This document shows, piece after piece, positions 7,754 to 54,953 of a stretch of DNA of 64,000 nucleotides (position 1 is its first letter; every line of letters starts with the position of its first letter). Under the pieces are notes generated by a model. The model saw only the letters and a program-made list of their open reading frames with translations. It was not told where the DNA came from and made no database searches. The DNA is taken from the NCBI GenBank assembly GCA_964535655.1, contig CAZHTP010000002.1, forward strand, positions 90,054-154,053, given 5' to 3'. The DNA comes from an uncultured Gammaproteobacteria bacterium. GTDB lineage: Bacteria > Patescibacteriota > Microgenomatia > JALYQM01. Both the position numbers and the translations under genes were made by a program.

Positions 7754-7762
7754 GAGACCTCA

Positions 7763-21528: not shown

Positions 21529-21605
21529 AATATATCTATAGTAAATGAGATAACTCACGTTATACAACAGTTAAAATTAATAGCAAAAAGTGATATAAAT
21601 AAAAT

Positions 21606-23180: not shown

Positions 23181-23183
23181 ATT

Positions 23184-23744: not shown

Positions 23745-23838
23745 GTTACCACAGTTTCAACACCTCAGCAATGATATCTTTTTGGTTGAATCTATTGTGA
23801 ATGCAGCTAATCGAGGCTGGGTATCTCTGCCTGCGTAG

Positions 23839-24048
23839 TTAAAAATCAAACAACTCTTTCAACTTCACATCCAACGCATTAGCCAATTTCCAGATCGTGC
23901 GAAGCATCGGTTCTCTATGACCATTTTCAATCTCGTTGACTGAGGTAATATCTATTTTTGCTTTCAGCGATAGGTCAAGTTGTGTCATCTTCTTTTGCTC
24001 TCGTAGTTTTCGCATGCGAGCACCAAAGCGTTCAGTGATTGTAGCCAT
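23839..24048 (-). CDS. XRE-family helix-turn-helix transcriptional regulator
   Basis: 69 aa with a classic HTH_3 pattern (MRKLREQKKMTQLDLSLKAKIDITSVNEIENG). Confidence 0.7.
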   Translation of the reverse strand: MATITERFGARMRKLREQKKMTQLDLSLKAKIDITSVNEIENGHREPMLRTIWKLANALDVKLKELFDF

Positions 24049-24144
24049 AGCACGTTAATACCTCTTGCTGTGACTATGGCACCCATGCCATACTACGTCT
24101 GTGGCAAGGACGCCAAATAGTGAGCTAGGTATGAGCGTGGTTTT

Positions 24145-24696
24145 ATGAAAAGTAAGAAGAAACTATTTCTCGTTTTCGTGTGTGCAACATTGTTCAGCTA
24201 TGCTATTCGTGTGGGTGCAGATATCATCCGACCGTCGTTTAATCTTGCGTCGGACTATTGCTTGTTTGTTGACGTGGTACGCACTGAGTATAACGAAGAG
24301 ATTGGCGAAGAATACGATGTGGAAGAATGTACTGTCTTTAAGAATGATGTCGAACGTCAGAAGTATTATTATAACCGAGCCCTTGCGAGTCAAAATGGAG
24401 GTGGATTGTTTCTTTTGACGATGTTGGGTAGCGGTCTTTTTGGACTTTTGGTTGTACGTCTTTTGTTTCCCACCCAAGAGCGAACAGCGATTATCGGAAG
24501 TCCCTTTTTTGCAGTGGTTGTGATCGGCTCTATAAGTACCGTGGGAGCCTTTATGTTGTCCTATATTCTACCTGCACCCTCAAGCCATCTGCCTTTTATC
24601 GAATACCAGCATCAACGATGGAGTGATGAAATGGAGGTTCAACTTGAACAAAGAGTAGTAACTATTAACGAAGATGGAGTTATTACACGTCAATGA
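24145..24696 (+). CDS. Hypothetical membrane protein
   Basis: Signal/TM at the N-terminus and two further TM helices. 183 aa. Confidence 0.45.
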   Translation: MKSKKKLFLVFVCATLFSYAIRVGADIIRPSFNLASDYCLFVDVVRTEYNEEIGEEYDVEECTVFKNDVERQKYYYNRALASQNGGGLFLLTMLGSGLFGLLVVRLLFPTQERTAIIGSPFFAVVVIGSISTVGAFMLSYILPAPSSHLPFIEYQHQRWSDEMEVQLEQRVVTINEDGVITRQ

Positions 24697-24715
24697 AAAG
24701 GCATAATACAAACTA

Positions 24716-24952
24716 TTGAAAGGAACACTCATGACCAACTATTTGAACATGCGAACCCATCCATTTACTGCCTATACCATTCTGCTAGTGATAGGCTTAG
24801 TTATTGGAGGACTGATTGGCAACATTCTGATCTTAATAGGAACGTTTGGGCTAATAGGTGCCGTGTGGCGAAAGATGCTTCCAAAAAGAAAGCCAGATAT
24901 AATACCGATCCAAAAGACTACTAATAGTCCTAACCCGTCAGATGAAAAGTAG
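24716..24952 (+). CDS. Small hypothetical membrane protein
   Basis: 78 aa, two hydrophobic helices. Confidence 0.3.
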   Translation: MKGTLMTNYLNMRTHPFTAYTILLVIGLVIGGLIGNILILIGTFGLIGAVWRKMLPKRKPDIIPIQKTTNSPNPSDEK

Positions 24953-25166
24953 TCACAAAAAGATACTCCTAATCGTAACCATCCTTACAGTATTGTGCTT
25001 GGTGTACTCCATTCGGGCTGTATACGTAAGTAATATGTGTAAGGAAGAGATATACAAAATGCCTACTGAACAAAGCGAGTATGATGATTTTATAGTTGGT
25101 GCAGACTTTATGCTCACAACATGCTTGAAAGAGCAGTATGTCGTACCGCTTGAGATGTTCAAGTAG
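24942..25166 (+). CDS. Small hypothetical protein with N-terminal TM
   Basis: 74 aa ORF overlapping the previous gene by 11 nt. Confidence 0.25.
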   Translation: MKSSHKKILLIVTILTVLCLVYSIRAVYVSNMCKEEIYKMPTEQSEYDDFIVGADFMLTTCLKEQYVVPLEMFK

Positions 25167-25723
25167 TGGTAACGGAGAGATTATTGGTACAAAATATTGT
25201 GTAACTTTGTCGTCTAGCTGCATGAATGTAGTAGTATATGGGGTGAGCGAGTCGTAAAAATGAATACATTATATATCCAATATAAATAACCTATAGTATT
25301 TTTATTAAAGATGTGCTATACTGCCTTTTGCTCATAGAGTCACTAGGCTCACTTTCTAGCGTAACTGACTTTGTTGAGCGTAAGCTTTTAGAATGAGCTT
25401 AAGTACCTTAACAATAATTTAGTGGGGAAGATTGGGGTTTTGAGCTTGCATAGCCAAATAGACGCTTAAACATCGTCTTAAAGGCAAAGCATATAAGTTC
25501 AAAGCTCCAACAATTCCCTACTATCTAATGTAAGCAATAGAGAGAATAACTTCCACACTAGTTGGGACATTTGAGGTAAAAACTGCCTGTTTCTATCTGA
25601 AATGTCCCGAATAGTGAAAGGAGTGCCATGTAAGATGGTTTTGGAAAGGTAGCATAAATGCTACTCAAGTGACGCAAGTTGCTTGAACGTAATTCTTTAA
25701 CCACCTACTAAGGAGAACTAACC

Positions 25724-26155
25724 ATGCGTAAGTACGCCATCCTGTTCGCTCTGCTGGCCGCCCTGCTCGGGTTCATCAACACCGCCAACGCCGCCCCGGC
25801 TGAGTGCCGCCGCTGGACCTACACGCAGGACGCCGTGGACAACAAGCCCATCGCCACCGGCATCGAGCTGTTCAACCAGCAGTCGATCAGCATGACCTCG
25901 CCTGAGACGGGAGCCGTCCTTCGGTTCCGCAGCCTCAAGCCCTTCAGCGTGAATGGCGGCGAGGCCACCTGGACAGAGATCGCCCCCGGCGTCTTCACCT
26001 GGCAGTACGTCTACTACTTCCCCAAGGGGCACACCTACCGCATGAAGATCACGAACGTCGACGCCCGCGTCATCCCAACCATCCTGCCGGACGGCCCTGG
26101 CCGCGGCATCACCTGGACCAAGTGGTCGGCCCAATGCGGGGACTATCAGCAGTAG
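25724..26155 (+). CDS. Secreted small protein (143 aa, signal peptide, 2 Cys) encoded by a strongly GC-rich (~65% GC, high GC3) gene
   Basis: RBS AAGGAG 8 nt upstream of the ATG. Signal peptide MRKYAILFALLAALLGFINTANA. Codon usage (ctg, gcc, ggc, cgc) is sharply different from the rest of the window. Confidence 0.7.
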   Translation: MRKYAILFALLAALLGFINTANAAPAECRRWTYTQDAVDNKPIATGIELFNQQSISMTSPETGAVLRFRSLKPFSVNGGEATWTEIAPGVFTWQYVYYFPKGHTYRMKITNVDARVIPTILPDGPGRGITWTKWSAQCGDYQQ

Positions 26156-26756
26156 CAACTGCTAAGTCTCCACACTAGCTGACCCTACCTCTCTACTGCT
26201 TACCGCAGACAACGTTTTAAGTTGTGGTCGCCAATTGGCACCATGATTTTAAGATGACGTTTGCGATAAGATAGTAGGGAGGTAGTTATACAGTCAACGA
26301 ATCTGTATCTGATGAAGGCAAAATGAAGCCGAAACTACCAACTCAACTAACGTTAGTTCACGAAAAAAAACAACGGCGAAAAAAGTTAACACACAAACAA
26401 AGCAACCAAACACCACAACCACCCACCAACCCTCTGTTATTTATTCTCAACTAGCTATGTGTTCATGCTATTAATAAAACACAATCGTTTGATCGAGTTT
26501 TCCCCAACATTAACATTCAGACCATACAAAAAAGGCTCCTTTTGTGGAGCCATCTTTTGCGTCTTGGTTGTAAGATCTGTAGTTATAATACAGCCTATTG
26601 TTGCTGTATGTCAAACATGGATGGGCGTGATTTGCATTACATGATGTCTCATAGTTATCATCACAGTATTATTATCATGGTTGATAGGAGACGTGGAATG
26701 TTTTGGTTTAGCGGAAGCACTCTGGAGGAGATCACTGCTGTACACGAATTGGTTGT

Positions 26757-28367
26757 ATGGGTCGATCCCTCAAAGATCGTGCGAGTCTATACATCGCACA
26801 CAAGTACAGTGGATTAGTGGAGTATGAGATCTTATGGTTACTACTCCGTACTCGTTTAGAGCGTGAGCCTGAGCTCTTTGAAGTGGCACTCACCTACATG
26901 ACACTACTCCAAGAGTTTAAAGTTGAGCAAGGCTATCCGGATATTTTTACCAGTGCTCCTTTAATTTATGCGTTCATGACAGGTAATGACACAAGGCAGT
27001 ACAGCAAGTCTGGTAACGAGTTTGTTGCTAGTTTTACACCAGTAGTTAAACTGCTGATAGAGAAACAGGTCTTCCAACGATCTAGTTTGTACTACACTTT
27101 CAACAAGGCAGATAAACCTAATCAAGCACGATCTTTCCGGTTAACACCGAAGTTCTACCAATGGTTTAAGAATGTCTTAAGAAGGGAGATGGAACAGGGT
27201 AAGCTATTGAGCCACATGTTTAGTAAAGTGGCCTCAAAACGCACTACACAAGGCGACGGATGGGGTCACAACATCTCCAGGGTGCATCCACACCTGCAAA
27301 CGATGTATCACAAGTTACAAGCGGCTACGTTTGTGATTGACGTAGAGAAAGTGAACGATCTACTCGACATTACAGAACTTATCCGAGACGATAGTGGAGT
27401 TTTACATTTCTCACGCATGGTCAGTATTCGCCATGGATTATCCACGATTGCACTCACAAATACACCACAGCACCACGACAAGATTCATCTCCAACGATCG
27501 GGCAGACGGCACACGAAAGGTGGCTTACAAGCACTACCAAAAGAAGTCAGACGTGCAATCTTAAAACCCAATCAAGCAGGTCATGTATTGGTTGACTATG
27601 ATCTGGACTGTTGCCAGTTATTGCTTGCAGCGAAAGAACTTCACGCACAAAAGCTTATAGCCAAGATCACTGCTATAGTTGAGCGAGGCAGAGGTATTTG
27701 GAAGGCGATGAATATTCCAGTCTCAAAGACACACTTAAAAAAGGCAGTGTATGCACTGGTGTTTATGTGTCCCAAAGGACGAATCGTTGAATCAGTTAAA
27801 AACGAGATGGGAGATGCTGCGTTTACAACAGAACATCTCGAACAGCTGATCAGCTTCTTGGAAGATTTATACCCGCTGCGAGAGAAATGGAAAGCAAACA
27901 ACCGACAGGATTCGATTATCCGACATGAAGGCGAGAAAAACGAGCTTGGCTTAAAGTTTCATCTTGAAGAGGTTGGTAAACATGCGTTTAGTGGTGATCA
28001 ATATGCTGAATCCTACTTGCCCACCTATCGCAAGAGCCCGCAGAGCCAATACTTTGCGTGGAAGATGCAGAGCCGAGAGCAGTTCATCATTACCAGTCTT
28101 ATATCAACTCATGTCGATTATTTAATAGTCTGTGATTGCCATGATGGATTCCTACTCTCCATTCCAAAAGAGGAGGTGCACACAGCTACACAAGCTTACA
28201 GAACATTTCTCAAAGACAACTATGGCATGTATCTGAAAGGTGAAGTTTGGGAGGATGGGCAAGTTATTCCTGTCGATGAGTATGTAGACAACGATGAACA
28301 ATCGTTTGTTTTGCCAGTACCGACTTTCCAGAGTGTAGTACCTGCTTTTACCGGGGGTGGGGTATAA
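26757..28367 (+). CDS. Hypothetical 536-aa protein on the integrative element, candidate replication/primase-like protein
   Basis: Long ORF of intermediate GC. VLVDYDLD resembles the hhhDhD motif I of archaeo-eukaryotic primase-type primases. No other recognisable signature. Confidence 0.4.
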   Translation: MGRSLKDRASLYIAHKYSGLVEYEILWLLLRTRLEREPELFEVALTYMTLLQEFKVEQGYPDIFTSAPLIYAFMTGNDTRQYSKSGNEFVASFTPVVKLLIEKQVFQRSSLYYTFNKADKPNQARSFRLTPKFYQWFKNVLRREMEQGKLLSHMFSKVASKRTTQGDGWGHNISRVHPHLQTMYHKLQAATFVIDVEKVNDLLDITELIRDDSGVLHFSRMVSIRHGLSTIALTNTPQHHDKIHLQRSGRRHTKGGLQALPKEVRRAILKPNQAGHVLVDYDLDCCQLLLAAKELHAQKLIAKITAIVERGRGIWKAMNIPVSKTHLKKAVYALVFMCPKGRIVESVKNEMGDAAFTTEHLEQLISFLEDLYPLREKWKANNRQDSIIRHEGEKNELGLKFHLEEVGKHAFSGDQYAESYLPTYRKSPQSQYFAWKMQSREQFIITSLISTHVDYLIVCDCHDGFLLSIPKEEVHTATQAYRTFLKDNYGMYLKGEVWEDGQVIPVDEYVDNDEQSFVLPVPTFQSVVPAFTGGGV

Positions 28368-29181: not shown

Positions 29182-30711
29182 ATGAATGCGATCATCTATA
29201 CCAGAGTTTCAACAGATGAACAAGTTAAGGGATTTAGCTTGGGTACTCAGCTAAAGGACTGTCGGGAGTTCTGTGAGTCAAAGGGCTGGACTGTAGTTGA
29301 CGTCTTTCAAGAAGAGGGTGAAAGCGGCACTACTGACAATAGACCTGAACTGAAACGAATGCTTGCGTATCTACAGAAGCATCGAGGTTTAATCCAGTAT
29401 GTTGTAGTCTGGAAGATTGATCGCATTTCACGCCTAATGAAAGACCATTTCAAGATAACGGAGCTTATCGAGGAATGTGGTAGTGTGGTTGTGAGTAAAA
29501 CCGAGTCTTTCGATAAGACACTGTCAGGAGAGCTACAGCAGCGGATACTACAGGTGTTTAGTGAGTATGACAATAAAGTACGAGCTGAGCGATCAGTCAC
29601 AGGTACAAGAGGCGGATTAGAGAATGGTATCTGGATGAGAGGCATTCCAACAGGTTATAAAGGTAGAGATGCTCACAAAGTGCCTTTAGTTGATCCTATC
29701 ATGGGACCAATACTTGCGGATATTCTGGTTACTTTTTCTCGGGGTAATCATGAAGTAAAGCAGATAACGGAGCTTGCGAAACAAAGAGGATTGCTGACTC
29801 CTAAAGACGAAGAGGTTTCCGATAAGACCATGCATAAAATACTTCGTAACCCTTTTTACTATGGTTGGCTGTCGATGCAAGGTAAAAAGATACAGTATGG
29901 CGGGTATGGCAAACACCAGCCTTTAATAGACAAAGACACGTTCTTTAAGATTCAGTCGGCTATGCTCAGTCATAACAACAGATCAAACACACGTCATCGT
30001 AATAGAGAGGAGTTCCCTCTTAAGAAGTTGTTGAGGTGTGGTGTTTGTGGAGGAGATTTAACAGCTGGTTCATCCCCTAACAAAAAGAAAGTACTCTACT
30101 GGTATTATCACTGCCAAAAGTCTGAGCATCTACGTATTCCAAAAGATCTCATAGAGAAGCAGTTTGAAACTATGTTGGAGCGTATTCGTCCTACCGAAGG
30201 GATATTGAACCTATTTCGTTTGGCCATTAGAAACTTGGTCAATGAGCGAATGGGTGATGCGATAACTAATGTTCAACGAGTTGATAAGGAGCTGACAGCA
30301 CTCCGTGATGAAAAAAACGGATACGTGAGGATGAGAGCGAGAAACGAGCTTGATGAAGCATTGTTCTTTCAAATGCTGAGAGAGGTTGATGCTAAGATCA
30401 ACAAAAAAGAGATGATTCGTGCTGAGATGCGAGAGGAAGAAGTTGATATTGATAAGCTATTAGCTCTCTATGAAAGCCTTTTCAAAAATGTGGCGATGTG
30501 GTGGAGAGAAGCACCGCTAGAGTATAAGCAACAGATGCAACATCTGGTATACCCAAAAGGCATAACAGTTATGTCGAAGCTTGGAGAAATACAACACCCT
30601 GAATTAGGCTTAGCGTTCGCAATAGTTGATTCTTTGCGAAGTGGTAGTGCCTTGAGTAGCCCCGAGGGGAATCGAACCCCTGATCTCCAGGATGAGAACC
30701 TGGCGTCCTAG
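29182..30711 (+). CDS. Large serine recombinase (integrase)
   Basis: N-terminal resolvase domain (IYTRVSTDEQ), recombinase domain and Cys-rich zinc ribbon (CGVCGGDLTAG...YWYYHCQKS). The last ~18 codons (..PEGNRTPDLQDENLAS*) are encoded by the antisense of tRNA-Glu. Confidence 0.85.
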   Translation: MNAIIYTRVSTDEQVKGFSLGTQLKDCREFCESKGWTVVDVFQEEGESGTTDNRPELKRMLAYLQKHRGLIQYVVVWKIDRISRLMKDHFKITELIEECGSVVVSKTESFDKTLSGELQQRILQVFSEYDNKVRAERSVTGTRGGLENGIWMRGIPTGYKGRDAHKVPLVDPIMGPILADILVTFSRGNHEVKQITELAKQRGLLTPKDEEVSDKTMHKILRNPFYYGWLSMQGKKIQYGGYGKHQPLIDKDTFFKIQSAMLSHNNRSNTRHRNREEFPLKKLLRCGVCGGDLTAGSSPNKKKVLYWYYHCQKSEHLRIPKDLIEKQFETMLERIRPTEGILNLFRLAIRNLVNERMGDAITNVQRVDKELTALRDEKNGYVRMRARNELDEALFFQMLREVDAKINKKEMIRAEMREEEVDIDKLLALYESLFKNVAMWWREAPLEYKQQMQHLVYPKGITVMSKLGEIQHPELGLAFAIVDSLRSGSALSSPEGNRTPDLQDENLAS

Positions 30712-30730
30712 GCCGCTAGACGACGGGGCC
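30657..30730 (-). tRNA. tRNA-Glu (anticodon CTC)
   Basis: Minus-strand cloverleaf GGCCCCG-TC-GTCT-AGCGGCCTAGGAC-G-CCAGG-TTCTCAT-CCTGG-AGATC-AGGGG-TTCGATT-CCCCT-CGGGGCT-A, very close to canonical bacterial tRNA-Glu. Confidence 0.8.
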
Positions 30731-30995: not shown

Positions 30996-33350
30996 TTAAT
31001 TTTCGTTACTTCCAACCAATTGTAATTCTTTCCAGAGTAGCTGACTTGATTCTTTACCTACAGCATTCACAGAGATTTGCTGCGTTAATTCACGCCATCG
31101 AGTGTGCTCTTCAATTGGTTTATTATCCTTACCAGTCATTTCTTCACTATAGTGAATTGTTCGGCGCCCAGTCGACTCGACAATTATATTCTGCTTTTCA
31201 AACGATTTCGTATCATTCTGGTAATGAATTACGGGCTGTGTAATATACACATATTCTTTTACAAGTTCCCACAGCACGTCATTTACGGCTTCATTTGTCT
31301 CAGAAACGGGAAGGCCAAGTGTTTGTGCTTCAAAATAAACAATTGGATAGTGTGCTGAAGGATATCCCTGAGTTAATTGAGTTATAATCTTTGCAATATC
31401 AGTATCGCTTCTTTTATTTTTTGTACTTAATTTCATTAAGTTTGTACAAATTCGTTGAGTTAGCGCAAATTGGCGTGCAGCGGCGGCAGTTACCAATGGA
31501 TGAAACGGCGATTGTGAAGGATCCATTACTGCAGGTTGATCATCTTTTTGCTTAACAGTTTTAGTGGGTGTTGTTGCTGATGCCTGGAATATCTCACTAA
31601 TTGGCACAGAAGCAGATTCTTCGTTTAGTGCTTTTTGTAAAAGCATATGCGAAAACGTGGTATCAATGGGTGATAAAAATCCAAATGGATTCATTAATAT
31701 TGAATCAGCCGCCAGCGCAAACATTGTTGTTGCCATTGTCGATTCTTCTGGCAATATAACGTGCATTTCTTCACAGAATTCACGGATAAGTGTTGCCATT
31801 CTCCAAACGACCGTACTATCAGTATCCTGGATGAATGGAATAACAAAGAGCGACTTTTTCCTTCCTAATTTTCGTAGGTGGCTATACAGATAGCGCATAT
31901 CCTCCATTGCTAATTTGGCTTGAGCGGCATAAAAAACAAGTACTTTCCCATGAAGTGATTCTTCAAGTCGTTCTATTGCTTCCTGGGTATGTTCCCATGC
32001 TACCGGTGGCTTTCGTTGAGGGGCCATTGCTGCGACAGGTGCTTGTCGGGGAGCCTGTTGTGAACGCCGATCTTCTCGTTGCGGCTGACGCGGTGTTTCA
32101 GATCGAACATTCTCTATTCGTTGTTCAGGTTGTGACCGATCTCCAACCGGCTCCGGTTGCTGATTTCGCGGCGGACGAGCTTGCTGATCTTCTTGTCGTG
32201 GCCGTTGTTCCTCCTGTCGAGTAGGTTGCTCTTGCGGAGGCCTCGGTGGCTGAGTATTTTGTCGTGGTTGCTCTTGTCTTTGTTTCTGCTCTTGTTTTGG
32301 TTGGTCAGGTCTTGTCGGCGCAGATTGGACTGGCTGTTGTGGCTCCGGTTGCTGATTTACTGTCTCTTGAACAGGCATCTCTTGTGGTTGCTGTGTTTGT
32401 TGTTTAGGTTGCTGTGGTGGTGCCGGCTGAACAGCAGATACCGGTTTTTGTTGTTTGGGTGTCGGTGGCGCGGCTTGTTGTTGAGGAGCAGGCTGGACCG
32501 GTTGCGGTTTAGGTGCTTGTTGCTTCGGAGCAGGTGGTCTCTGTGGTGGTTGTGCTGGCTGTTGTTGAGGCATTGGTTGTTTGAACACCGAGTCAAGTGA
32601 AGGCAATGAGGGCGGTTGATTTGATGCGGCGGCTGCCATTGGTTGATTAAGCGGTGGTAATCGCTGACCGCCTGCAGGTGCGGGTGCAGACATACTTGGC
32701 GTATTTAATGGTGGCAGCCCAGGTGCGCTATTAGCTCCCTCAGGAGCATCAAATTGCAAACCACTACTCTTAAGTAAGTCGTCCAAACTTGGTAGATCGA
32801 AATTATCGTTGGGGGCATTGACTTGACCTTGCTTACTAAACGGCAACGGTGGAACTTGGCTTTGTACGGCCTGAGGAAGAGGCGCTGGTGCGGGAGAATT
32901 TTGTAGTGTAGGTGGGATCGGTGTTGCCGTCGCCTGTTCGGCCGCGGGAGATACCCCGTTAGTATAACTCTCCCACGCTAAGTCGGTTATACGTTTATAA
33001 ATCAGGTCAAAAGGGGATTTACGCATCTCTCCCTTAAGCCGCTGATAGCTCGTCATTGTTACAGTATTGTTCCCCATGGAGTCAACTACACTTAATGTTA
33101 CATCAGGAACATTTGGGGATGCCCCCGAATCATGAATTATATTAGGCAATTGAAAAAAACCAGTCTCCCTGCAATATTGGAGAGTTCCCATAACTTTATT
33201 ACGATCAATTTGCCGTTCTACAATATCTGTATCAGATTCAAAAATAAGCATTCGTCCGTTGTCGTAAATCTCAACATCGCCAGCACGAGAATTTGGCGGT
33301 AAAAGGCCACCACTCATTTTTACTAGTATTGCTAGATTTGAAACTGGCAT
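30996..33350 (-). CDS. Three-part protein: N-terminal domain, ~250-aa Pro/Gln-rich low-complexity spacer, C-terminal SDH/ClpP-class (S49-like) protease-like domain with the catalytic Ser apparently substituted
   Basis: The C-terminal segment FVIPFIQDTDSTVVW...ESTMATTMFALAADSILMNPFGFLSPID parallels the SDH-family ...HYAMSGGTLIALAADEIVMD...GPVDP, with Ala replacing Ser. The start is placed at an internal Met because the longest ORF overlaps tRNA-Lys(TTT). Confidence 0.45.
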   Translation of the reverse strand: MPVSNLAILVKMSGGLLPPNSRAGDVEIYDNGRMLIFESDTDIVERQIDRNKVMGTLQYCRETGFFQLPNIIHDSGASPNVPDVTLSVVDSMGNNTVTMTSYQRLKGEMRKSPFDLIYKRITDLAWESYTNGVSPAAEQATATPIPPTLQNSPAPAPLPQAVQSQVPPLPFSKQGQVNAPNDNFDLPSLDDLLKSSGLQFDAPEGANSAPGLPPLNTPSMSAPAPAGGQRLPPLNQPMAAAASNQPPSLPSLDSVFKQPMPQQQPAQPPQRPPAPKQQAPKPQPVQPAPQQQAAPPTPKQQKPVSAVQPAPPQQPKQQTQQPQEMPVQETVNQQPEPQQPVQSAPTRPDQPKQEQKQRQEQPRQNTQPPRPPQEQPTRQEEQRPRQEDQQARPPRNQQPEPVGDRSQPEQRIENVRSETPRQPQREDRRSQQAPRQAPVAAMAPQRKPPVAWEHTQEAIERLEESLHGKVLVFYAAQAKLAMEDMRYLYSHLRKLGRKKSLFVIPFIQDTDSTVVWRMATLIREFCEEMHVILPEESTMATTMFALAADSILMNPFGFLSPIDTTFSHMLLQKALNEESASVPISEIFQASATTPTKTVKQKDDQPAVMDPSQSPFHPLVTAAAARQFALTQRICTNLMKLSTKNKRSDTDIAKIITQLTQGYPSAHYPIVYFEAQTLGLPVSETNEAVNDVLWELVKEYVYITQPVIHYQNDTKSFEKQNIIVESTGRRTIHYSEEMTGKDNKPIEEHTRWRELTQQISVNAVGKESSQLLWKELQLVGSNEN
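31900..32640 (-). repeat. Low-complexity coding repeat (Pro/Gln/Glu/Arg-rich, ctg/ttg/ggt-rich DNA) inside 30996..33350
   Basis: Reiterated QQPxPQ / PKQQ peptide units. Generates long spurious antisense ORFs. Confidence 0.7.
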
Positions 33351-33476
33351 ATAAAAAGAGTGTATCCAAGATCGACATCTCTTGTCAATTGACCGCTGCC
33401 AGTGATACAGTATCCTAATCCAAGCGTAGACGGGTGTATATATCTCTGATATAATCATCACCGAGGAAATAGCAAT

Positions 33477-33548
33477 GGGTCGGTAGCTCAATGGTAGAGC
33501 AGCAGCCTTTTAAGCTGTTGGTTCTGGGTTCGAATCCCAGCCGACCCA
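33477..33548 (+). tRNA. tRNA-Lys (anticodon TTT)
   Basis: GGGTCGG-TA-GCTC-AATGGTA-GAGC-A-GCAGC-CTTTTAA-GCTGT-TGGTT-CTGGG-TTCGAAT-CCCAG-CCGACCC-A. Confidence 0.85.
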
Positions 33549-34714: not shown

Positions 34715-34918
34715 CGTAGGGCATGGTACAACTATCGTCCTTGAGGAGGCGCACGATGGCAAACTTATTAGCAGCAATATTGTGTTCTTTATTGGATGGA
34801 CATCCACTCTATGGGGGCTCCCTGCATTAAAATCACTTTTAAAAGGTGCTTCTAAATCTCAATAGCCATTTACAGTCTCTCCCAACTACTTCTATAATAA
34901 GTATCACGGAGATACGCA

Positions 34919-36556
34919 ATGTTTGAACGTCCTATAGTTAAAATAACATTTGTTGTAAATACAAATGTATCTGTATCTTCACGAGATCTCGTGGAGGTGC
35001 GTAGTCTTTATGGAGAACTAAATCCCATTGATTCTGGTTCCTATTTTGAGACACTGCTGATTAACCGTTGGACAAAAGAAAAAATCTCTTACGATAAATT
35101 CTCTCAAAGCTATTACTATTCTTCAATTAATGATTCGTACAAGAAACTACCAGTTTCCCAGTATTTGCAGAGTCTTTCAATATGCACTCCTGAAATCATT
35201 ACGCGAATCATGAGTAAAGTTGAATCTATACGTAGGGAACATCCTTCTGCACAGCAAGTTGTCTTAACGCTTAGTATGAATAATGAACTAAGTGTCAATT
35301 CATTTATTGCTAACACTGATCGAATACTGCATTTTTCTCGAAGTAAAAACGACTTACAGGAAATACGTACTGGCAGCAAGAATGGCTCCGGTGTTGCGTT
35401 AGGTATGTATAAGCGAATATATAAAAAATCGGATACCTTTAGATTAGCAAAAAATACTATTATTGCGGGACCGTACGAAATTGTTAAAAACTGTGCTGAC
35501 AAACGAATTATTGGTCTCATTGTAATCCATGACGCAAAGCATCCCCACCAACACCTATCATTTTCAGGACCAAAAATAACCATCGACAGTAAATCTCTTA
35601 AAGGTCTTAAAGATGGAACCATTATCTCTCTAAATACAAGTAAAGGGGAGATTATACGTATAGGAAAAGTTCCTTCACCCAACAAACCAAAAAAGATAAC
35701 GCATAACGTATTTTATGAAGATTTTTCAATTCAAAATGGAAAATCAATCCAAGAGGCAAAAGGATATAGTTTTCTCAATGGAATGGAGTTGGTAAGGTCA
35801 ATTTTAAAGAATCATACGTCTGGTAGTTATACAGATGCCTTAGTTCATTATTTTATTCATGATCTAAAACTTAAGCCCGAAAAACCACTTCTGTATCAAT
35901 CATTATGTGTTAGTTCAGGATCTAAACATATTTTTGGAAAATCAGGTGGCCAGTATATTAGAGAAAACCCAGATTTTTTTATTGAAGAATTGGCGGCACT
36001 GCACAGGTTATTGTACATATATAATTTTATAGATATCACTCTCACACTTCCTTTTATTCGAACAGTTAAAGAACTCGAAGATGTTAAAAAACTAGTTATT
36101 CGTGAAAAACTGACAAGGTCGCATAAATTTAAACTCTTTATTACTCTTCAAGTACCATCTACAATTTTACAGTTAGAGGAGTATTTAGATGTCGGAATAG
36201 ATGGACTAATTATCGACCTGCAATGTCTTACTGACTTAACTTTAGGGATTGATTCACACGTATTTAAAAAGGATTACAAAAAAGCAGAGCATTCATATGC
36301 TTTTATGCAAGAGATCTATCAAAAAAATGATGGGGCTGGAGTAATCCAATTAAAGTATCTTGAAACAAATGGCATTACACTGGATTCAGCGATACAAAAA
36401 ATGATAAATCACTGCAATGAAGTGGCATCACGCAGAAGAATACCCTTGTTTGTATATATCCCTGATAGTTTTGAAGAAGAAGTTGAACAGGAAATTAAGA
36501 AGCAAACGCATCCCTTCGTTCCTCATAAGCTGGTGATCCATAGCCAGCATGTCTAA
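34919..36556 (+). CDS. Divergent PEP-utilizing-enzyme family protein (Enzyme I / PEP synthase-like: mobile His domain plus PEP-binding TIM-barrel domain, no ATP-grasp domain)
   Basis: GLIVIHDAKHPHQHLSFSGPKITIDSKSLKGLKDGTIISLNTSKGEI resembles the phospho-His swivelling domain. KLFITLQVPSTILQLEEYLDVGIDGLIIDLQCLTDLTLGI resembles the C-terminal IMIEIPSAA...VDFFSIGTNDLTQ region, but is degenerate. Confidence 0.45.
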   Translation: MFERPIVKITFVVNTNVSVSSRDLVEVRSLYGELNPIDSGSYFETLLINRWTKEKISYDKFSQSYYYSSINDSYKKLPVSQYLQSLSICTPEIITRIMSKVESIRREHPSAQQVVLTLSMNNELSVNSFIANTDRILHFSRSKNDLQEIRTGSKNGSGVALGMYKRIYKKSDTFRLAKNTIIAGPYEIVKNCADKRIIGLIVIHDAKHPHQHLSFSGPKITIDSKSLKGLKDGTIISLNTSKGEIIRIGKVPSPNKPKKITHNVFYEDFSIQNGKSIQEAKGYSFLNGMELVRSILKNHTSGSYTDALVHYFIHDLKLKPEKPLLYQSLCVSSGSKHIFGKSGGQYIRENPDFFIEELAALHRLLYIYNFIDITLTLPFIRTVKELEDVKKLVIREKLTRSHKFKLFITLQVPSTILQLEEYLDVGIDGLIIDLQCLTDLTLGIDSHVFKKDYKKAEHSYAFMQEIYQKNDGAGVIQLKYLETNGITLDSAIQKMINHCNEVASRRRIPLFVYIPDSFEEEVEQEIKKQTHPFVPHKLVIHSQHV

Positions 36557-36562
36557 AATATT

Positions 36563-37684
36563 ATGTATAAAATTGAAAAACTTACTGCTACTAAAATCCA
36601 ACACGGCCATAAACTGCAGCTAAATGTTGCGATTAAACTGGATAACGGTCTTCTAGTCCAAGGTGATATACCAGTATATAGTTCTAATCCCGAGGGAGAT
36701 ATCACTAAAGCCCTTGGCTTAATAAATGACATTATTGCGCAAATATTTGATGGAATAAATCCATTGCATCAAAAAGAACTCGATAAAATGCTTACAGAGT
36801 TAACCACCGTACACAATCAGGATGTTCTCGCGATAAATATTTCTTTAGGAATCTCTCTTATCCTACTAAAGGCTGCCGCTGCTTTACATAATAAACCGGT
36901 GCGGACATATCTCCAAACGATATACAGTTTAAAACAACCGTCAAGCAGGCGGATAGTGCCTGTTTTCAAATGTATAGCAGATAAAAGAGAACAAGGCCAA
37001 TTCAAAGAATTTTCAATTATACCGTCGCGAGCGTTTAGTATTGCCAAAGATTTTGAAATTTTTCGAAAAGTTAAGGCCGCCCTCGATGCAGAAATCAATA
37101 CTCCATCTGAGGTAATGAATACAGTACAACTTGAGATATTGCAAAATAAGATTTCTGAACTGGGATATACGCCTCATCGCGATATTTTTATTGGCATTAA
37201 GCCAGAATTATGTCAGGTAGCAGATAGTGAGTTTATCTGTAATGATATGGTAGGAAACGCGACACAAGATCAAATAATAGAATATTTTAGAGAGATCCAA
37301 ACGTTGTATGCCCCACTCATTACTGAAAACCCTTTCATTTATCACACGTTTAGTCCATACGCTGCGTTACATAAAGAAATTGGGGAGCAATCAATTCTCA
37401 CACTGAATACGGATATTATTAATAGTGCACATAAATGTAAGTATTTTGCTTCACTGATGCCAGGATCTATGCTTGCACTATATCCACCAAGTATCAAAAC
37501 AGTATCGCACTGTATTGAGTTAATCAAATTAGCCGAAGGAAATGATCTAAAAATAATGGTAGATACAAGTGGAATAAAAGGGAGCACTACGTTATCGGCT
37601 ATTGCCGAAGCCTTTGCTTGTGATTTTATCAAAATCGATTCGTGTACCGAGCAAGCAGAAAAGGAATTTTCTTATGTTGAATAA
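36563..37684 (+). CDS. Divergent enolase-superfamily protein (373 aa; shortened, several catalytic positions not conserved)
   Basis: N-terminus IEKLTATKIQHGHKLQLNVAIKLDNG ~ the enolase N-terminal beta-hairpin. AINISLGISLILLKAAAALHNKPVRTYL ~ GANAILAVSLAVAKAAA...PLYRYL. The C-terminus VDTSGIKGSTTLSAIAEAFACDFIKIDS ~ SHRSGETEDTTIADLAV...GQIKTGS. Confidence 0.5.
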   Translation: MYKIEKLTATKIQHGHKLQLNVAIKLDNGLLVQGDIPVYSSNPEGDITKALGLINDIIAQIFDGINPLHQKELDKMLTELTTVHNQDVLAINISLGISLILLKAAAALHNKPVRTYLQTIYSLKQPSSRRIVPVFKCIADKREQGQFKEFSIIPSRAFSIAKDFEIFRKVKAALDAEINTPSEVMNTVQLEILQNKISELGYTPHRDIFIGIKPELCQVADSEFICNDMVGNATQDQIIEYFREIQTLYAPLITENPFIYHTFSPYAALHKEIGEQSILTLNTDIINSAHKCKYFASLMPGSMLALYPPSIKTVSHCIELIKLAEGNDLKIMVDTSGIKGSTTLSAIAEAFACDFIKIDSCTEQAEKEFSYVE

Positions 37685-39251
37685 ACCTGTTAAACCGGTT
37701 GTATTACTCATTTTTGATGGCTTTGGCATCGCTCCTCCCAGTAATAGCAATGCGATAAGTTTAGCAAAAATGCCTAACTACCATAATTTTTCGGCGCGCT
37801 TCCCTCATGGTCGACTTCAAGCCAGTGGAACAGCAGTTGGTTTAACTCCCGGAGAAGTAGGGTCAACAGAGGTGGGGCATTTAAATCTCGGTGCGGGAAG
37901 AGTTGTTTATCAAGATTTACCTCGAATTAACATGTCAATTTCAGAGGGGACATTCCTCTCAATCCCGGCTCTGGTAAGCGCCGCTACTCATGCCAAAGAG
38001 AATAATTCTAATTTACATCTTATGGGGCTTGTTAGCAACGGAAATGTGCATGCTTCAATCGAACATCTGTATGCGTTAATGTGGTTTGCCAGGCAGCAAG
38101 GTATGCGATCCGATCAATTAAAAATTCATGCATTCCTTGATGGTCGCGATACCGCACCTACAGCAGGTGCAATGTTCTTGGCCGAAGTCGAGCAAAAAAT
38201 TCAAGAACTACAGATTGGACAAATTGCAAGTTTGGCAGGGCGCTACTATGCCATGGATAGAGATAACCGTTGGGATCGTATCGAAAAAGCATATAAGGCA
38301 TTAGTGTTTGCTCAGGGAGATACGGCACATTCTTCGCAGGAAGCGATTCAAAATAGTTATAAAAAAAATACGACGGATGAATTTGTCGTACCAACGATCA
38401 TCTTAGACGCAAATAATCAGCCAGTTGGTCAAATTAAAGATAATGACGCTGTAATATTTTTTAATTTTCGCTCTGACAGGCCTCGCGAATTAACGAGGGC
38501 CTTTGTCCTGGGTAATTTTAATTCTTCAGAAAAACCCACATTTGATCGCGGGAAGAGATTAGATAACGTATGCTTTGTAACTATGACTGAATATGATCGT
38601 GATGTACCAGTAAGCGGCATTGCTTTTCCGCAGGAAAAAGTAAATATGCCGCTTGCTCGAGTTCTCTCTAGTCACGATATGCGCCATTTACATATCGCAG
38701 AAACAGAAAAAGAGCGGTTTACTACTTTCTTCTTTAACGGTATGCGTGAAGATCCATTCCCCGGTGAAGAACGAATTTTTATACCCTCACCAAAAATCCC
38801 CACGTATGATCTAAAGCCAGAGATGTCCAGCTTTGAAATAACAGATACCATTCTAAAGAAATTGTCTCAGCAATCTTTTGATTTTGCCGTCATCAACTTT
38901 GCTGCTACAGACATGGTTGCGCATACAGGAAAATTAGAAGCAGCTATCAAATCATGTGAAGCTCTGGATATTTGTCTTGGAAAAATAGTTAATGCGGTAC
39001 TAATGGCTGGTGGTGCCGTAGTTCTTACTGCCGACCATGGAAATGTAGAAAAATTAATCGACGAAAATGGTGGACCTGATCCGGAACACACCAATAATCC
39101 TGTTCCTCTCTTAGTTTGCGCAGAAGGATTAACCAGTATGCAAATCCCCTATGGCATACTTGCCGATGTTGCCCCGACTATTCTTGCGTTAATGGGAATA
39201 CAAAAACCCTCAGAAATGACTGGACGAAATTTGTTACCTCAAATTCACTAA
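37674..39251 (+). CDS. gpmI: 2,3-bisphosphoglycerate-independent phosphoglycerate mutase
   Basis: N-terminus KPVVLLIFDGFG and metalloenzyme/iPGM domain order. The start is taken at the Met of MLNKPVKPV, 11 nt before the enolase-like stop. Confidence 0.85.
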   Translation: MLNKPVKPVVLLIFDGFGIAPPSNSNAISLAKMPNYHNFSARFPHGRLQASGTAVGLTPGEVGSTEVGHLNLGAGRVVYQDLPRINMSISEGTFLSIPALVSAATHAKENNSNLHLMGLVSNGNVHASIEHLYALMWFARQQGMRSDQLKIHAFLDGRDTAPTAGAMFLAEVEQKIQELQIGQIASLAGRYYAMDRDNRWDRIEKAYKALVFAQGDTAHSSQEAIQNSYKKNTTDEFVVPTIILDANNQPVGQIKDNDAVIFFNFRSDRPRELTRAFVLGNFNSSEKPTFDRGKRLDNVCFVTMTEYDRDVPVSGIAFPQEKVNMPLARVLSSHDMRHLHIAETEKERFTTFFFNGMREDPFPGEERIFIPSPKIPTYDLKPEMSSFEITDTILKKLSQQSFDFAVINFAATDMVAHTGKLEAAIKSCEALDICLGKIVNAVLMAGGAVVLTADHGNVEKLIDENGGPDPEHTNNPVPLLVCAEGLTSMQIPYGILADVAPTILALMGIQKPSEMTGRNLLPQIH

Positions 39252-39548: not shown

Positions 39549-40166
39549 TTATTGGTATTTACGTATTACTCCCACAACTTTACCTTGAATTTGTACATCG
39601 GTCGCATAAATAGGTTGCATCGTACTATTAGCTGGTTCAAGTCTAATCCTTGTTGGCTCTTTATAAAATCTCTTTAATGTTGCAAGTCCATTCTCAAGGA
39701 GTGCCACCACAATTTCACCGTTTCGCGCAGTTTCTTGTCTTTCAATAATGACAAAATCTCCATCTAAAATACCATCTTCAATCATCGATTCACCTTTAAC
39801 TTGCAAAACATAGGTAGGTTTCTTACCGGAAATCATCCCAGAGCTAACTGTCATAGCGGCATTTGGATCCGTAAAAGTTGCAATAGGTTGACCAGCTGCA
39901 ATATACCCAAGGATCGGCAGTTCAACACCTTCAAGCATATTTCCCATTTTCTTTTCAAGCACTTCTATCCCACGCACCATACCTTCGTATTTACGAATTA
40001 ACTTTTTCTTTGTTAAAGCCTGCAAGTGTTCATGTACTGTTGCAAGAGATTTAACATTTATTGCATCGGCAATTTCCTGAAGAGTAGGTGAGTAGCCATT
40101 CTTTTGAATATATTGTGAAATAAAATCTAGTATCTGACGCTGCTTTCGGTATACTATAACGGGCAT
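39549..40166 (-). CDS. lexA: LexA repressor
   Basis: N-terminal winged-helix domain (TLQEIADAINVKSLATVHEHLQALTKKKLI) and a C-terminal S24 peptidase domain (GESMIEDGILDGDFVIIE..., Ser/Lys dyad context). Confidence 0.85.
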   Translation of the reverse strand: MPVIVYRKQRQILDFISQYIQKNGYSPTLQEIADAINVKSLATVHEHLQALTKKKLIRKYEGMVRGIEVLEKKMGNMLEGVELPILGYIAAGQPIATFTDPNAAMTVSSGMISGKKPTYVLQVKGESMIEDGILDGDFVIIERQETARNGEIVVALLENGLATLKRFYKEPTRIRLEPANSTMQPIYATDVQIQGKVVGVIRKYQ

Positions 40167-44766: not shown

Positions 44767-47700
44767 ATGTCCAAAGACCTCATATCGATTAAAGGTGCGC
44801 GTGAAAATAATCTGAAAAATATTGACGTCGACATTCCCAAACATAAGTTAGTTGTATTTACCGGGCTTTCTGGCTCAGGAAAATCGTCACTTGCTTTTGA
44901 CACTATTTACGCTGAAGGTCAAAGACGATATGTGGAGTCGCTATCATCCTATGCAAGGCAATTTCTTGGAGTAATGGACAAGCCCGATGCCGATTACATC
45001 GAAGGGCTATCACCAGCAATTTCAATCGATCAGAAAGCCGCATCGCATAATCCACGCTCAACTGTTGGTACAACTACAGAAATATATGACTATCTCCGGT
45101 TGCTTTTTGCCCGGGTTGGCCATCCGCATTGTCCAAAATGTGGTCGCGAAATCCAGCATATGTCTATTGATCAAATCGTTGACTCAGTATTTCGGCTCGC
45201 CGGCGATATCATGTCTAAAGATAAACAGGTCGCTATTCGTGGTGCTCGGCTATTTATTCTGTCTCCTGTTGTAAAAGAACGAAAGGGCGAATTTAGTAAT
45301 CTTTTTGCCGACTTGCGCAAAAAAGGATTTGCCCGTGCTCGTATCGATGGCACCGTTCGTGATCTTTCTGATGACTTTGGCCTTATTAAAACCAATAAAC
45401 ATTCAATTGATGCTCTTGTTGATCGCATTGTTATTTCACAAGACGTTAGTCAATTATTTGTTAAACAGTCAAAAGAAGGTAAAGAAGCCCTCACAACCGA
45501 TGATTTTGACAAACTGCAAAGTATCCGCACTCGGGTTTCGCAGTCGGTCGAACAAGCACTAAAGCTATCAGAAGGCACAGCAATCGTATCAGATATTCAG
45601 GATAACGATCTAAACTTTCCTCAAAACCCTCAAAAAATGGAAGATCACCTATTTTCAGAAAATTTTGCCTGTCCCTTTGACAATATTTCCTTACCAGAAA
45701 TCGAACCACGCACATTTTCTTTTAATTCGCCACAAGGCGCTTGTCCCAATTGCGCCGGGCTCGGCACAGAACTAAAAATTGATGCCGATTTAATCCTTAA
45801 CCCAAACTTAAGTATCTCTGAAGGGGGAATTTTACCTTGGAATCGCCTTTCAAGCACTGAAACGTGGTTTACTCGCATCATCAATGAAGTGGCCGCTGTA
45901 AAAGGATTTGCTATAAAGGTTCCCATTAAAGAGCTTTCATCAGAAGCGATCAATATTTTGTTAAAAGGCACCGGTAACGAGACATTTTTTGTAAAAGGCG
46001 AAAATCGCCAAGGCAAACAGACTGGATTTGAAACTGTCTTTGAAGGAGTGATTCCTAACTTACTTCGTCGTTACAAAGAAACCGAGTCAGATTATGTTCG
46101 TGGTGAAATAGAAAAATATATGCGCTCAGAAATTTGTCCAATTTGCGAAGGCAAGCGACTCAAGCCAGAGGCACTTTCTGTGACAATTAATAAAGATTCA
46201 ATTTACGACATCACAAATAATTCTATAAAAAATGCCCTTACCTGGGTGCATTCTCTACAAGCCGATAAAACCCTCTCAGATCGCGAAACCACAATCGGCA
46301 AGCCAATTCTTAAAGAAATAGTTAATCGACTACAGTTTTTAATCGACGTCGGACTCGACTACCTTACCCTCAACCGTACATCAGCAACTTTAGCAGGGGG
46401 AGAAGCACAAAGAATTCGTCTAGCTTCACAAATTGGGTCCGGGCTAACGGGAGTTTTGTACGTGCTTGACGAGCCTTCAATCGGATTGCATCAACGCGAC
46501 AATACCAAATTAATCAAAACGCTCAAGCGACTTCGTGATTTAGGAAATAGTGTCATTGTTGTCGAACATGACGAAGAAACAATGGAAGACTCAGACTATA
46601 TCTTTGACTTTGGCCCAGGTGCAGGCGAGCACGGAGGACAAATTATTGCGCACGGTACCCCCGAGGAAATTAAAAAAGATAAGAAGTCCATTACTGGTCA
46701 ATATCTATCAGGCAAAAAAATCGTTGAAGTAGATAAAAACTTCTCAGTAAAAGCTCTTATGGAGTCAGATCAGCGCCGACGGAAAAAGGTCAATGAAAAT
46801 GTAATGGAGATAAAAATTCTTGGAGCAAAAGAGCACAATTTAAAAAATATTGATGTTTCAATCCCGCTTGGCAAATTCGTTACGGTAACCGGCGTTTCGG
46901 GGTCAGGAAAATCTACATTAGTCCATGACATTTTATATAAATCACTATCCGAACATTTTTTCCATTCCAAAGATAAGCCCGGAAAACACGACGATATTGT
47001 CGGCCTTGAAGCACTCGACAAATGTGTGATGATCGATCAGTCACCTATTGGTCGTACACCACGCTCTAACCCGGCAACATACACAGGAGCCTTTACCTAT
47101 ATTCGCGAGCTTTTTGCTCGAACAACAGAAGCCCAAGTCCGTGGCTATGGCCCGGGTCGCTTTAGCTTTAATGTTAAAGGCGGGCGCTGTGAAGTGTGTC
47201 AGGGTGACGGCATGATTAAAATTGAAATGCAATTTTTACCCGATGTGTATGTAAATTGCGATGCCTGTGAAGGCAAGCGCTATAATCGTGAAGCGCTTGA
47301 AGTTCATTATCGCGGCAAGAATATCTTCGATGTTCTCAACATGACGGTCGAAGAAGGACTAGATTTCTTTGGCAGCATCCCAGCATTAAGAAACAAACTC
47401 GAAACGTTATATGATGTTGGGCTAGGATACATCCGCCTAGGCCAACCTGCAACACAACTTTCTGGTGGAGAAGCCCAGCGCATTAAGCTCGCTTCCGAAT
47501 TATCCAAACGTCCAACAGGTCACACAATGTATATCCTCGACGAACCAACAACTGGCTTGCATTTTGCCGACATCTCTCGCCTGCTTTCTATCCTGCGCAG
47601 GTTAGTCAACCATGGAAATACAGTCTTAGTAATTGAGCATAATCTTGATGTGATTAAAAACGCCGATTGGCTTATTGATCTTGGCCCTGAAGGCGGCGAC

Positions 47701-47817
47701 GGAGGTGGCACACTTGTGGCGCAAGGTTCGCCCGAAGAACTTGCCGAAGTCAAAGAAAGCTATACAGGGAAGTATTTAAAGAAAATGTTTGATAAGCAAA
47801 AAGTTTTAGGGAAGTAG
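44767..47817 (+). CDS. uvrA: Excinuclease ABC subunit A
   Basis: Two ABC ATPase modules (GLSGSGKSS; GVSGSGKST) and zinc-finger Cys clusters (CPKCGRE; CEVCQGDG...CDACEGKR). Confidence 0.9.
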
Positions 47818-54766: not shown

Positions 54767-54839
54767 GCCTTCGTAGCTTAATGGATAGAGCAGTTGGCTT
54801 CGAACCAACCGGTTGGGGGTTCGAGTCCCTCCGAAGGCA
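54767..54839 (+). tRNA. tRNA-Arg (anticodon TCG)
   Basis: GCCTTCG-TA-GCTT-AATGGATA-GAGC-A-GTTGG-CTTCGAA-CCAAC-CGGTT-GGGGG-TTCGAGT-CCCTC-CGAAGGC-A. Confidence 0.8.
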
Positions 54840-54882
54840 CCGAGCAGAAGCCAGTCTCGCGACTGGTTTTTAGTTGTTTTTT

Positions 54883-54953
54883 GGGCTGGTAGCTCAGCGG
54901 TAGAGCAGTTGCCTCTTAAGCAATTGGTCCTGGGTTCGAATCCCAGTCAGCCC
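54883..54953 (+). tRNA. tRNA-Lys (anticodon CTT). The 3' 38 nt are also the antisense of the 3' end of recombinase A
   Basis: GGGCTGG-TA-GCTC-AGCGGTA-GAGC-A-GTTGC-CTCTTAA-GCAAT-TGGTC-CTGGG-TTCGAAT-CCCAG-TCAGCCC-A. Confidence 0.8.

Follow-up and report, generated by a model that had tools for sequence, protein, structure and literature searches.

The locus described here raises the question of whether three adjacent genes that read like the lower part of glycolysis encode that pathway or something derived from it. The locus occupies positions 34919-39251 of a 64,000-nucleotide stretch of bacterial DNA (contig CAZHTP010000002.1 of assembly GCA_964535655.1; hereafter the window), in which a scan for open reading frames (ORFs) recovered three co-directional genes on the plus strand. 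Gene A (34919-36556, 545 aa) is a truncated and catalytically degenerate homologue of phosphoenolpyruvate (PEP) synthase (PpsA), gene B (36563-37684, 373 aa) is an enolase-fold protein without the enolase catalytic machinery, and gpmI (37674-39251, 525 aa) encodes a cofactor-independent phosphoglycerate mutase (iPGM) in which the nucleophile is a threonine and not Ser62. The cluster resembles lower glycolysis and probably is not one. We favor, with moderate confidence, the explanation that A and B, which derive from pps and eno, are pseudoenzymes inherited together as a pair, with another and probably non-catalytic role. The gene positions agree with those of the original prediction, which had also described the genes as fused; A and B are in fact separated by 6 nt, and B and gpmI merely overlap, by 11 nt. 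The true start of gpmI is the ATG at 37674, with AAGGAA just upstream, and the gene is predicted to be translationally coupled to B through this overlap.

Homology, folds and catalytic residues of the three genes

The homology of B to enolase (EC 4.2.1.11; TIGR01060, PF03952 plus PF00113) is far beyond chance, yet its score against the full-length family model is far below the cut-off (75.6 bits, E 2.9e-21, compared with 300 for TIGR01060), and its Pfam scores fall just under the respective thresholds (Enolase_N, 34.6 compared with 35; Enolase_C, 20.9 compared with 21.5). A profile of the B family matched enolases of the PDB with an E of 2.5e-25. The AlphaFold2 (AF2) model of B, with a predicted local distance difference test (pLDDT) value of 77.5, gave a template modeling (TM) score of 0.84 to enolases, among them those of M. 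tuberculosis, Coxiella and Chloroflexus, at 17-20% identity, and the top 50 Foldseek matches of the model were enolases throughout, with query TM (TMq) values of 0.78-0.84. By both the model and the Foldseek search B has the two-domain fold of enolase, with an N-terminal capping domain and a barrel, and it occupies the genomic position of eno; it differs in length, with 373 aa compared with about 430. The B family comprises about six members in 5.8 billion proteins, and a profile search for further members yielded just one more protein, a canonical enolase.

The catalytic residues of B were called in phmmer, MAFFT and profile alignments, using the numbering of yeast enolase, and the three alignments agree on the loss of the catalytic machinery. 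The mobile L1 loop (Ser39, Mg II) is 14-18 aa shorter, His159 is lost and aligns to Asp/Asn or to a gap depending on the alignment, and a deletion has removed the GDEGG segment together with the catalytic acid Glu211. In place of the Mg ligand Asp246, five members of the family have Lys and one (P0003) has Arg, so that none of the six keeps Asp, and Asp320 is replaced by Asn, Ser or Gly. At the position of the catalytic base Lys345 the family has Tyr, Cys, Asn, Thr, Gln and Thr, and His373/Arg374 are replaced as well (by Asp/Thr, or by a gap/Thr-Ala, according to the alignment). The sole survivors are the equivalents of Glu168, Glu295 and Lys396; the enolase features that B lacks are the Lys345/Glu211 pair, the Mg(I) trio, of which Glu295 alone is kept, and the L1 and substrate residues. 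The Lys or Arg at the former metal site lies beside two carboxylates that are kept, and would seem to take the place of the metal and stabilize the fold. The short length of B and its catalytic substitutions, already remarked on in the original prediction, are real, and the substitutions are more extensive than was stated there.

Gene A shows a comparable combination of clear homology and low family scores. The PEP synthase model NF005057 matched A with an E of 2e-13, confined to residues 347-455 (49.3 bits; cut-off, 598), while TIGR01418 gave 46.5 bits (cut-off, 739.75) and Pfam PEP-utilizers_C 20.8 (cut-off, 22.8). A profile of the A family retrieved 904 relatives, and PEP synthases of ~750 aa aligned in hmmsearch without a break, residues ~20 to ~450 of A being matched to their own residues ~200 to ~665. 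In full-length PpsA relatives the PPDK_N domain covers about residues 20-310 (boundaries read in P0040 and P0047), followed by the mobile domain at about 360-430 and by the PEP-binding domain at about 450-745. As the alignment of full-length PEP synthases to A begins only at residue ~200 of the former, both the alignments and the model describe A as a PpsA that lacks its first ~190-200 residues and keeps part of the ATP-grasp domain. Upstream of A there is no space for the missing N-terminus, as a small ORF and a promoter already fill the 204 nt between A and the preceding DUF192 gene.

The AF2 model of A has a pLDDT of 84.1 and a predicted TM score (pTM) of 0.52, and the relative orientation of its domains is not comparable. 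Its best Foldseek match was the PEP synthase 2ols (E 7.8e-17), PEP synthase being also the best match by sequence, followed by pyruvate phosphate dikinases (PPDKs) at about 1e-14 and at worst 1e-11, over 595-670 columns, in agreement with the three-domain fold of PEP synthases and PPDKs. The order of ATP-grasp remnant, swivel domain and PEP-binding barrel is collinear with PpsA, and the framework motifs PFxRTxxE and GxDG are kept. Profile searches and structure superposition thus support the earlier proposal that A and B are homologues of a PEP-utilizing enzyme and of enolase, respectively. The A family is as rare as that of B, with five close relatives among 5.8 billion proteins.

Each of the three domains of A is altered. 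Residues 1-131 (34919-35311) correspond to the C-terminal third of the ATP-grasp (PPDK_N) domain, so that the complete nucleotide-binding domain is absent; positions ~20-130 align continuously in hmmsearch to residues ~200-310 of full-length PpsA, and this segment alone gave a weak but collinear match to PpsA in hhalign (E 0.026, probability 1.9%), the main support for the remnant coming from the unbroken hmmsearch alignments of full-length proteins and from the match in fold. Residues 149-250 (35363-35668) form the swivel (mobile) domain, which has no conserved phospho-histidine: the column of the catalytic His holds H, gap, G, G and H in five members of the family, and the GGxTSHAAI motif is absent. 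Residues 265-530 (35711-36508) form the PEP/pyruvate-binding barrel, the best-conserved part of the A family, which carries a deletion of 15 aa in the phosphate-binding loop and stops ~50 residues short of the canonical domain. Compared with canonical PpsA proteins carrying all eight catalytic residues (P0012, P0013, P0018, P0044, P0046, and P0105), none of the seven active-site residues of the barrel is retained in the A family: the Arg of the YR motif is replaced by Gln, that of the GxRG motif by Ser, Gln or His, the Mg-ligand Glu by Gln, the Asn and the Mg-ligand Asp of the ND motif by Gln and Cys, respectively, the Arg of the DR motif by Ser, and the Cys by Tyr. The last of these replacements accounts for the degenerate Cys motif reported earlier, and in profile alignments the catalytic residues are largely gone from A and B alike.

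The original prediction had assigned to A only a swivel domain with its histidine and a PEP-binding barrel, in an architecture like that of Enzyme I of the phosphotransferase system (PTS). Both domains are present, and Enzyme I structures do appear among the Foldseek matches (2wqd and 2hro, E 1e-10 to 2e-7); they rank below PEP synthases and PPDKs, no Enzyme I family model in Pfam or NCBIfam matches A, and the N-terminus of A aligns to the ATP-grasp domain of PpsA and not to an HPr-binding subdomain. The Enzyme I-like identity was therefore rejected, together with the conserved swivel His.

The third gene had been called a canonical gpmI, which it is by score and by metal ligands. It reached 611.7 bits against TIGR01307 (cut-off, 330.65), 265.8 bits against iPGM_N, 216.5 bits against Metalloenzyme and 537 bits against the iPGM of B. 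stearothermophilus, and, as read from the alignment, its Mn ligands (D12, D403, H407, D444, H445, and H462) and substrate residues (H123, R153, D154, R185, R191, R261, R264, and K336) are identical to those of 1ejj. The nucleophile, however, is threonine: Ser62 (B. stearothermophilus numbering) corresponds to Thr65 in the window (codon 37866-37868, within GSTEVGH), and at residues 121-128 the SDGGVHSH motif reads SNGNVHAS, both changes being conserved in all four orthologues of the clade. Threonine serves as nucleophile in other enzymes of the alkaline phosphatase superfamily, and a gpmI protein with a Thr nucleophile is plausibly active. Within the clade gpmI is 82-85% identical.

Ancestry of the locus and selection on the pair

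Comparison with related loci allows the changes to be arranged in a stepwise series. In two outgroup loci (L014 and L018) the genes PGM_PMM and PGI are followed by a PpsA-like gene (724-749 aa), an enolase gene (419-420 aa) and LexA on the minus strand, and in L014 the enolase gene is additionally followed by a His_Phos_1 gene, with UvrB farther downstream. The enolases of these loci keep 9-10 of 12 catalytic positions, and their PpsA-like partners 0-2 of eight. At L013 a DUF192 gene precedes an A-like gene of 464 aa and a B-like gene in which Asp246 is retained. The 545-aa A, the 373-aa B and gpmI are found together in what we call the window clade (the window, L001, L004/L005, L015, and the P0003/P0007 and P0005/P0010 contigs); in the window they are preceded by a gene for a 219-aa protein of no confident family, the DUF192 gene and the remnant of a small membrane-peptide ORF, and followed by LexA on the minus strand and then UvrB. 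At L011 (GCA_964525495.1), with the same flanks as the window, the A-like gene is reduced to 399 aa and has no swivel domain, and the B-like gene is reduced to 239 aa, with a barrel only, its N-terminal domain gone and Glu295 replaced by Ala; gpmI is absent from this locus, though the reduced A-like and B-like genes persist. Wherever both genes occur they are adjacent, from an overlap of 4-8 nt up to a gap of 44 nt. A scan of GTDB representatives matched two loci only.

A and B lie upstream of LexA (on the minus strand) and UvrB, exactly where the outgroup operons have pps and eno, and would therefore seem to descend in place from these two genes and not to be extra paralogs. The order of the genes, which had been read as mirroring the conversion of 3-phosphoglycerate (3-PG) to 2-phosphoglycerate (2-PG), PEP and pyruvate, would accordingly be inherited; as evidence of a running pathway it does not hold, because the pair outlives gpmI at L011. 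The locus offers a rare series, from an intact operon through residue loss and domain loss to the loss of the neighboring mutase, that shows how core metabolic genes turn into pseudoenzymes.

It was also observed that the His_Phos_1 gene, which resembles cofactor-dependent phosphoglycerate mutase (dPGM; L014, 10032-10652; L017, 8365-8991), holds the position taken by gpmI in the window clade. As the iPGM-type gpmI is unrelated, this suggests either a replacement of the mutase in place or the presence of an unrelated phosphatase.

Among the window, L001 and L004 the synonymous sites have reached saturation. The number of nonsynonymous substitutions per site (dN) amounts to ~0.47 for both A and B, to 0.11 for gpmI and to 0.02 for LexA; the rate of A and B is about fourfold that of gpmI and far above those of UvrB and LexA. 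The identity of UvrB to the window protein is 92% in L004, 82% in L011 and 62% in L014; in the same three relatives the values for A are 49, 34, and 24%, and those for B 49, 26, and 22%. As a rule enolase ranks with the slowest-evolving and most conserved proteins of bacteria, and these rates argue against A and B as a genuine enolase and PEP-utilizing enzyme. The original enzymatic constraint on A and B has clearly been lost.

Constraint of another kind persists. When the window is compared with L015 (85% identity), where synonymous substitutions per site (dS) are ~0.57, dN/dS is 0.12 for the C-terminus of A, 0.146 for B and 0.04 for gpmI. Moreover, the ORFs of A and B are intact in at least six genomes among which dS is saturated, and proteins that are ~47% identical overall contain blocks of about 80-100% identity. 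Pseudogene decay is unlikely in view of the dN/dS values of 0.12-0.15, the intact ORFs at saturated dS and the near-invariant blocks. A and B are homologues that have lost the catalytic residues and remain under purifying selection, which is the operational definition of a pseudoenzyme.

A sigma-70-like promoter is predicted directly upstream of A on the plus strand (34869-34898; TTTACA, 18 nt, TATAAT; scan score 11/12), and the GGAG Shine-Dalgarno sequence of A lies 3' of it. Both promoter hexamers are kept in L001 and L004 despite the saturation of synonymous sites in the flanking genes, and the Shine-Dalgarno sequence is likewise conserved in relatives with saturated synonymous sites.

With respect to the rates of the neighboring genes, the LexA protein (39549-40166, minus strand) is 99-100% identical to those of L001 and L004 and 95% identical to that of L011, with its synonymous sites saturated (78.7-84.1% nucleotide identity). 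DnaE (12628-16350), UvrA (44767-47817), and BipA (17804-19645) cluster at ≥90% identity with a 1.57-Mb contig of a related genome. The spread of rates within one syntenic block is unusually wide, as neighbors of LexA, DnaE, UvrA, and BipA are just 46-59% identical.

Possible roles of the pair and alternative explanations

According to the explanation that we favor, a glycolytic operon of pgi, pps, eno and a mutase would have been present in the ancestor of an uncultured, small-genome bacterial lineage, and in the window clade the descendants of pps and eno would have lost their catalytic residues and been shortened in place. A and B would still be transcribed with gpmI from the conserved promoter, tightly coupled and under purifying selection, and would have taken on a binding, scaffolding or regulatory role, plausibly as mutual partners, leaving gpmI as the only enzyme of the original kind. 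We infer from this a non-catalytic state of the pair, a joint action of A and B and a lineage without the enolase step. Enolases are known to moonlight as a component of the RNA degradosome, as surface adhesins and as tau-crystallin. These proteins and the archaeal enolase-like PRK08350 may offer a parallel to B, as cases in which the enolase fold is kept for a non-catalytic role, and serve here as a lead only; the match of B to the PRK08350 model (341 aa, annotated as a hypothetical protein) is weak (E 0.0055). The original prediction had left open whether the genes were extremely divergent functional enzymes or repurposed paralogs, and it is the repurposing that agrees with the intact ORFs, the dN/dS of 0.12-0.15 and the kept promoter; the position of pps and eno speaks against the term paralogs, and the loss of the acid/base residues, Mg ligands, phosphate-binding Arg residues, phospho-His and Cys speaks against functional enzymes.

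Several observations weigh against this explanation or restrict it. The identity of B to enolases is ~20%, and at this level single positions, notably Asp320, may shift by 1-2 residues in the alignment. An interaction between A and B is plausible from two observations only, their conserved adjacency and their parallel reduction. The description of the lineage as similar to the Candidate Phyla Radiation (CPR) leans on one partial PEP-binding protein labeled Patescibacteria, the nearest labeled outgroup, with 28% identity, and on the sizes of the genomes. Finally, both proteins keep conserved polar residues close to their old sites, which could form a new catalytic or ligand-binding site and not merely stabilize the fold. 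In B these are the invariant E149, E191, H205, D207, D228, E255, D334, K357, and D359; in A they are invariant polar stretches that include YQSxC and DLQCLTDLTxGxDSH.

A further point of this kind is the possibility, real though on balance doubtful, that A and B are spare paralogs and that the genome encodes a canonical enolase, as well as a pyruvate kinase or PPDK, at some other place. The contig is at least 234 kb long and the scan covered 64 kb of it, a related genome includes a contig of 1.57 Mb, and another relative (L017) carries two PpsA-like genes on one contig; within the 64-kb window no other glycolytic gene was found by Pfam among ORFs of at least 150 aa. On the other hand, A and B sit exactly where pps and eno sit in the outgroups and so look like the original copies. 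This alternative is compatible with the explanation that we favor, as A and B are non-canonical in either case.

The conserved polar residues lead to a second alternative, which we regard as unlikely while giving it serious weight, namely that A, B or both have a rebuilt active site and catalyze a different reaction. Such a site might be metal-independent, with the Lys at the old Mg site, and might act on a related phospho- or carboxy-metabolite, for example the 2-phosphoglycerate made by gpmI. The motifs that line the former sites belong to the best-conserved parts of both families, in B (KEF, MNTxQLE, HxD, CND, ITEN, MxD, and DFIKxD) and in A (QxP, besides the two stretches mentioned above), the window clade maintains a tight translational coupling to the strongly constrained gpmI, and both the enolase superfamily and the PEP-utilizing barrels support varied chemistry. 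However, at L011 the reduced pair persists without gpmI, with Glu295 replaced by Ala and the N-terminal domain of B gone, the QC and DSH motifs of the window clade are not kept in relatives of ~400 aa, and a stepwise loss of domains is easier to reconcile with a role in binding or structure than with a defined active site.

It is quite improbable that A and B are functionless relics in decay that are kept just so that the coupled gpmI is expressed. Their fast evolution, the progressive loss of domains from L014 through the window to L011 and the overlap of gpmI with B would be expected in that case, but the dN/dS of 0.12-0.15 indicates that the amino acid sequence is constrained beyond the reading frame, near-identical blocks are retained, and both reduced genes outlast gpmI at L011. 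Least probable of all is a genuine, divergent pair of enolase and PEP-utilizing enzyme that completes the route from 3-PG to pyruvate with gpmI, for although the gene order fits the pathway, the proteins are true homologues with the right folds, and Jaffe et al. (2020, PMC7304191) could not exclude that CPR genomes encode divergent enzymes overlooked by their hidden Markov models (HMMs), B has lost Lys345, Glu211 and two Mg ligands, and A has lost the phospho-His, two Arg, Glu, Asn, Asp, and Cys together with the ~190-200 N-terminal residues of the ATP-grasp domain. The pseudoenzyme pair descended from pps and eno thus remains the explanation that we prefer.

Wider pattern in relatives and other features of the window

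The loss of catalytic residues extends beyond the window clade. Among the 31 full-length PpsA-like proteins nearest to the A profile, six carry all eight catalytic residues, 25 lack at least two of the eight, and 19 have three or fewer. The PpsA-like proteins P0047, P0055, and P0042, which belong to the pairs of L016, L018, and L014, retain 0-2 of the eight residues. At L016 (Logan ERR4837132) a PpsA-like protein with none of the eight adjoins a 418-aa enolase (8263-9519) with the substitutions H159I, E211M, D246N, D320N, K345Q, and H373G, which is otherwise close to the enolases of L014 and L018. With 423.6 bits against TIGR01060, above the cut-off of 300, this protein would be annotated as enolase. 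The pairs of L016, L018, and L014 resemble A and B in the adjacency of the same two genes, and in L014 and L018 also in the synteny with LexA (in L014 with UvrB as well); they differ in being full length (about 720-750 and 418-420 aa) and in still passing Pfam thresholds, A and B being far more diverged.

The 35-kb contig of L017 contains its two PpsA-like genes at 6001-8121 and 12623-14121; one of the proteins, P0043, has one of the eight catalytic residues, and the other has 822 aa. Degenerate and possibly intact copies of PpsA may therefore coexist in some genomes.

Pseudoenzymes derived from core metabolic enzymes are already known, and the A-B pair is a new case; in the literature searched we found no description of a bacterial pair of pseudo-enolase and pseudo-PpsA or of a degenerate PpsA in Patescibacteria. 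Previous work has reported that enolase, phosphoglycerate mutase and pyruvate kinase, and likewise PEP synthase, are patchy across the CPR, suggested that PEP synthase may be a stand-in for pyruvate kinase and could not exclude that divergent enzymes had escaped the HMMs used (Jaffe et al., 2020, PMC7304191). Metabolic reconstructions of uncultured bacteria with small genomes depend on HMM matches, and in the present case the "divergent enzymes" are homologues under selection without catalytic residues. If this were general, lower glycolysis would be over-predicted in part of the radiation, and the PpsA-like and enolase-like pair would have a selected function that has gone unrecognized. More tentatively, pseudo-PpsA and pseudo-enolase might constitute a conserved module across a wide, small-genome (CPR-like) radiation, in which PpsA lost catalysis first and enolase later in some lineages, with a joint non-glycolytic role, so that the annotated lower glycolysis would be partly an artefact; we consider this possible without expecting it.

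Immediately upstream of the promoter of A lies the remnant of a small membrane-peptide ORF (34756-34865, plus strand), with the motif FFIGWT..LWGLPAL and an AGGAGG Shine-Dalgarno sequence, which encodes 38-45 aa in relatives. A conserved gene for the hydrophobic peptide is found between DUF192 and A in L001 (9807-9944), L005 (9809-9946), and L011 (7841-7957), and L004 has the peptide at this position as well, the equivalent region of the window being 34715-34865. As a result of a 28-nt deletion in the window, the ATG at 34756 no longer shares a reading frame with the conserved C-terminal part (end at 34865); the gene is therefore either broken, shortened to a GTG start at 34782, or affected by an assembly error. 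A search of the whole window against Rfam at the gathering threshold for structured RNAs or riboswitches returned seven tRNAs only. A defense system was considered and rejected, as PADLOC gave no match for A, B, the upstream neighbors or the L011 versions.

Elsewhere in the window, a large serine recombinase (29182-30711, plus strand; PHROG integrase, E 2e-78) overlaps with its 3' end a tRNA-Glu gene (30656-30730, minus strand), and it is preceded at 19957-28367 by about 9 kb of ORFs without a Pfam or PHROG match. Recombinase, relaxase and TraG-like genes are present at the equivalent place in L004, and this is probably an integrated mobile element. Another large serine recombinase (54916-56715, minus strand), with Resolvase, Recombinase and Zn-ribbon domains, overlaps tRNA-Lys (54883-54955) at its 3' end and is adjoined by tRNA-Arg (54767-54841). 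Downstream, a 500-aa ORF (57316-58818, plus strand) matches phrog_30194, a phage family without an assigned function (E 7e-40), and this region may be a second integrated element. Three ORFs of the window that share a length of 536 aa proved to be unrelated to one another, and their equal length is coincidental. The minus-strand gene at 30996-33491 encodes an 831-aa protein with a long Pro/Gln-rich, low-complexity middle part and a weak ClpP-like SDH-protease domain at the C-terminus, which is conserved with 53-71% identity at the same position in L001, L004, and L011.

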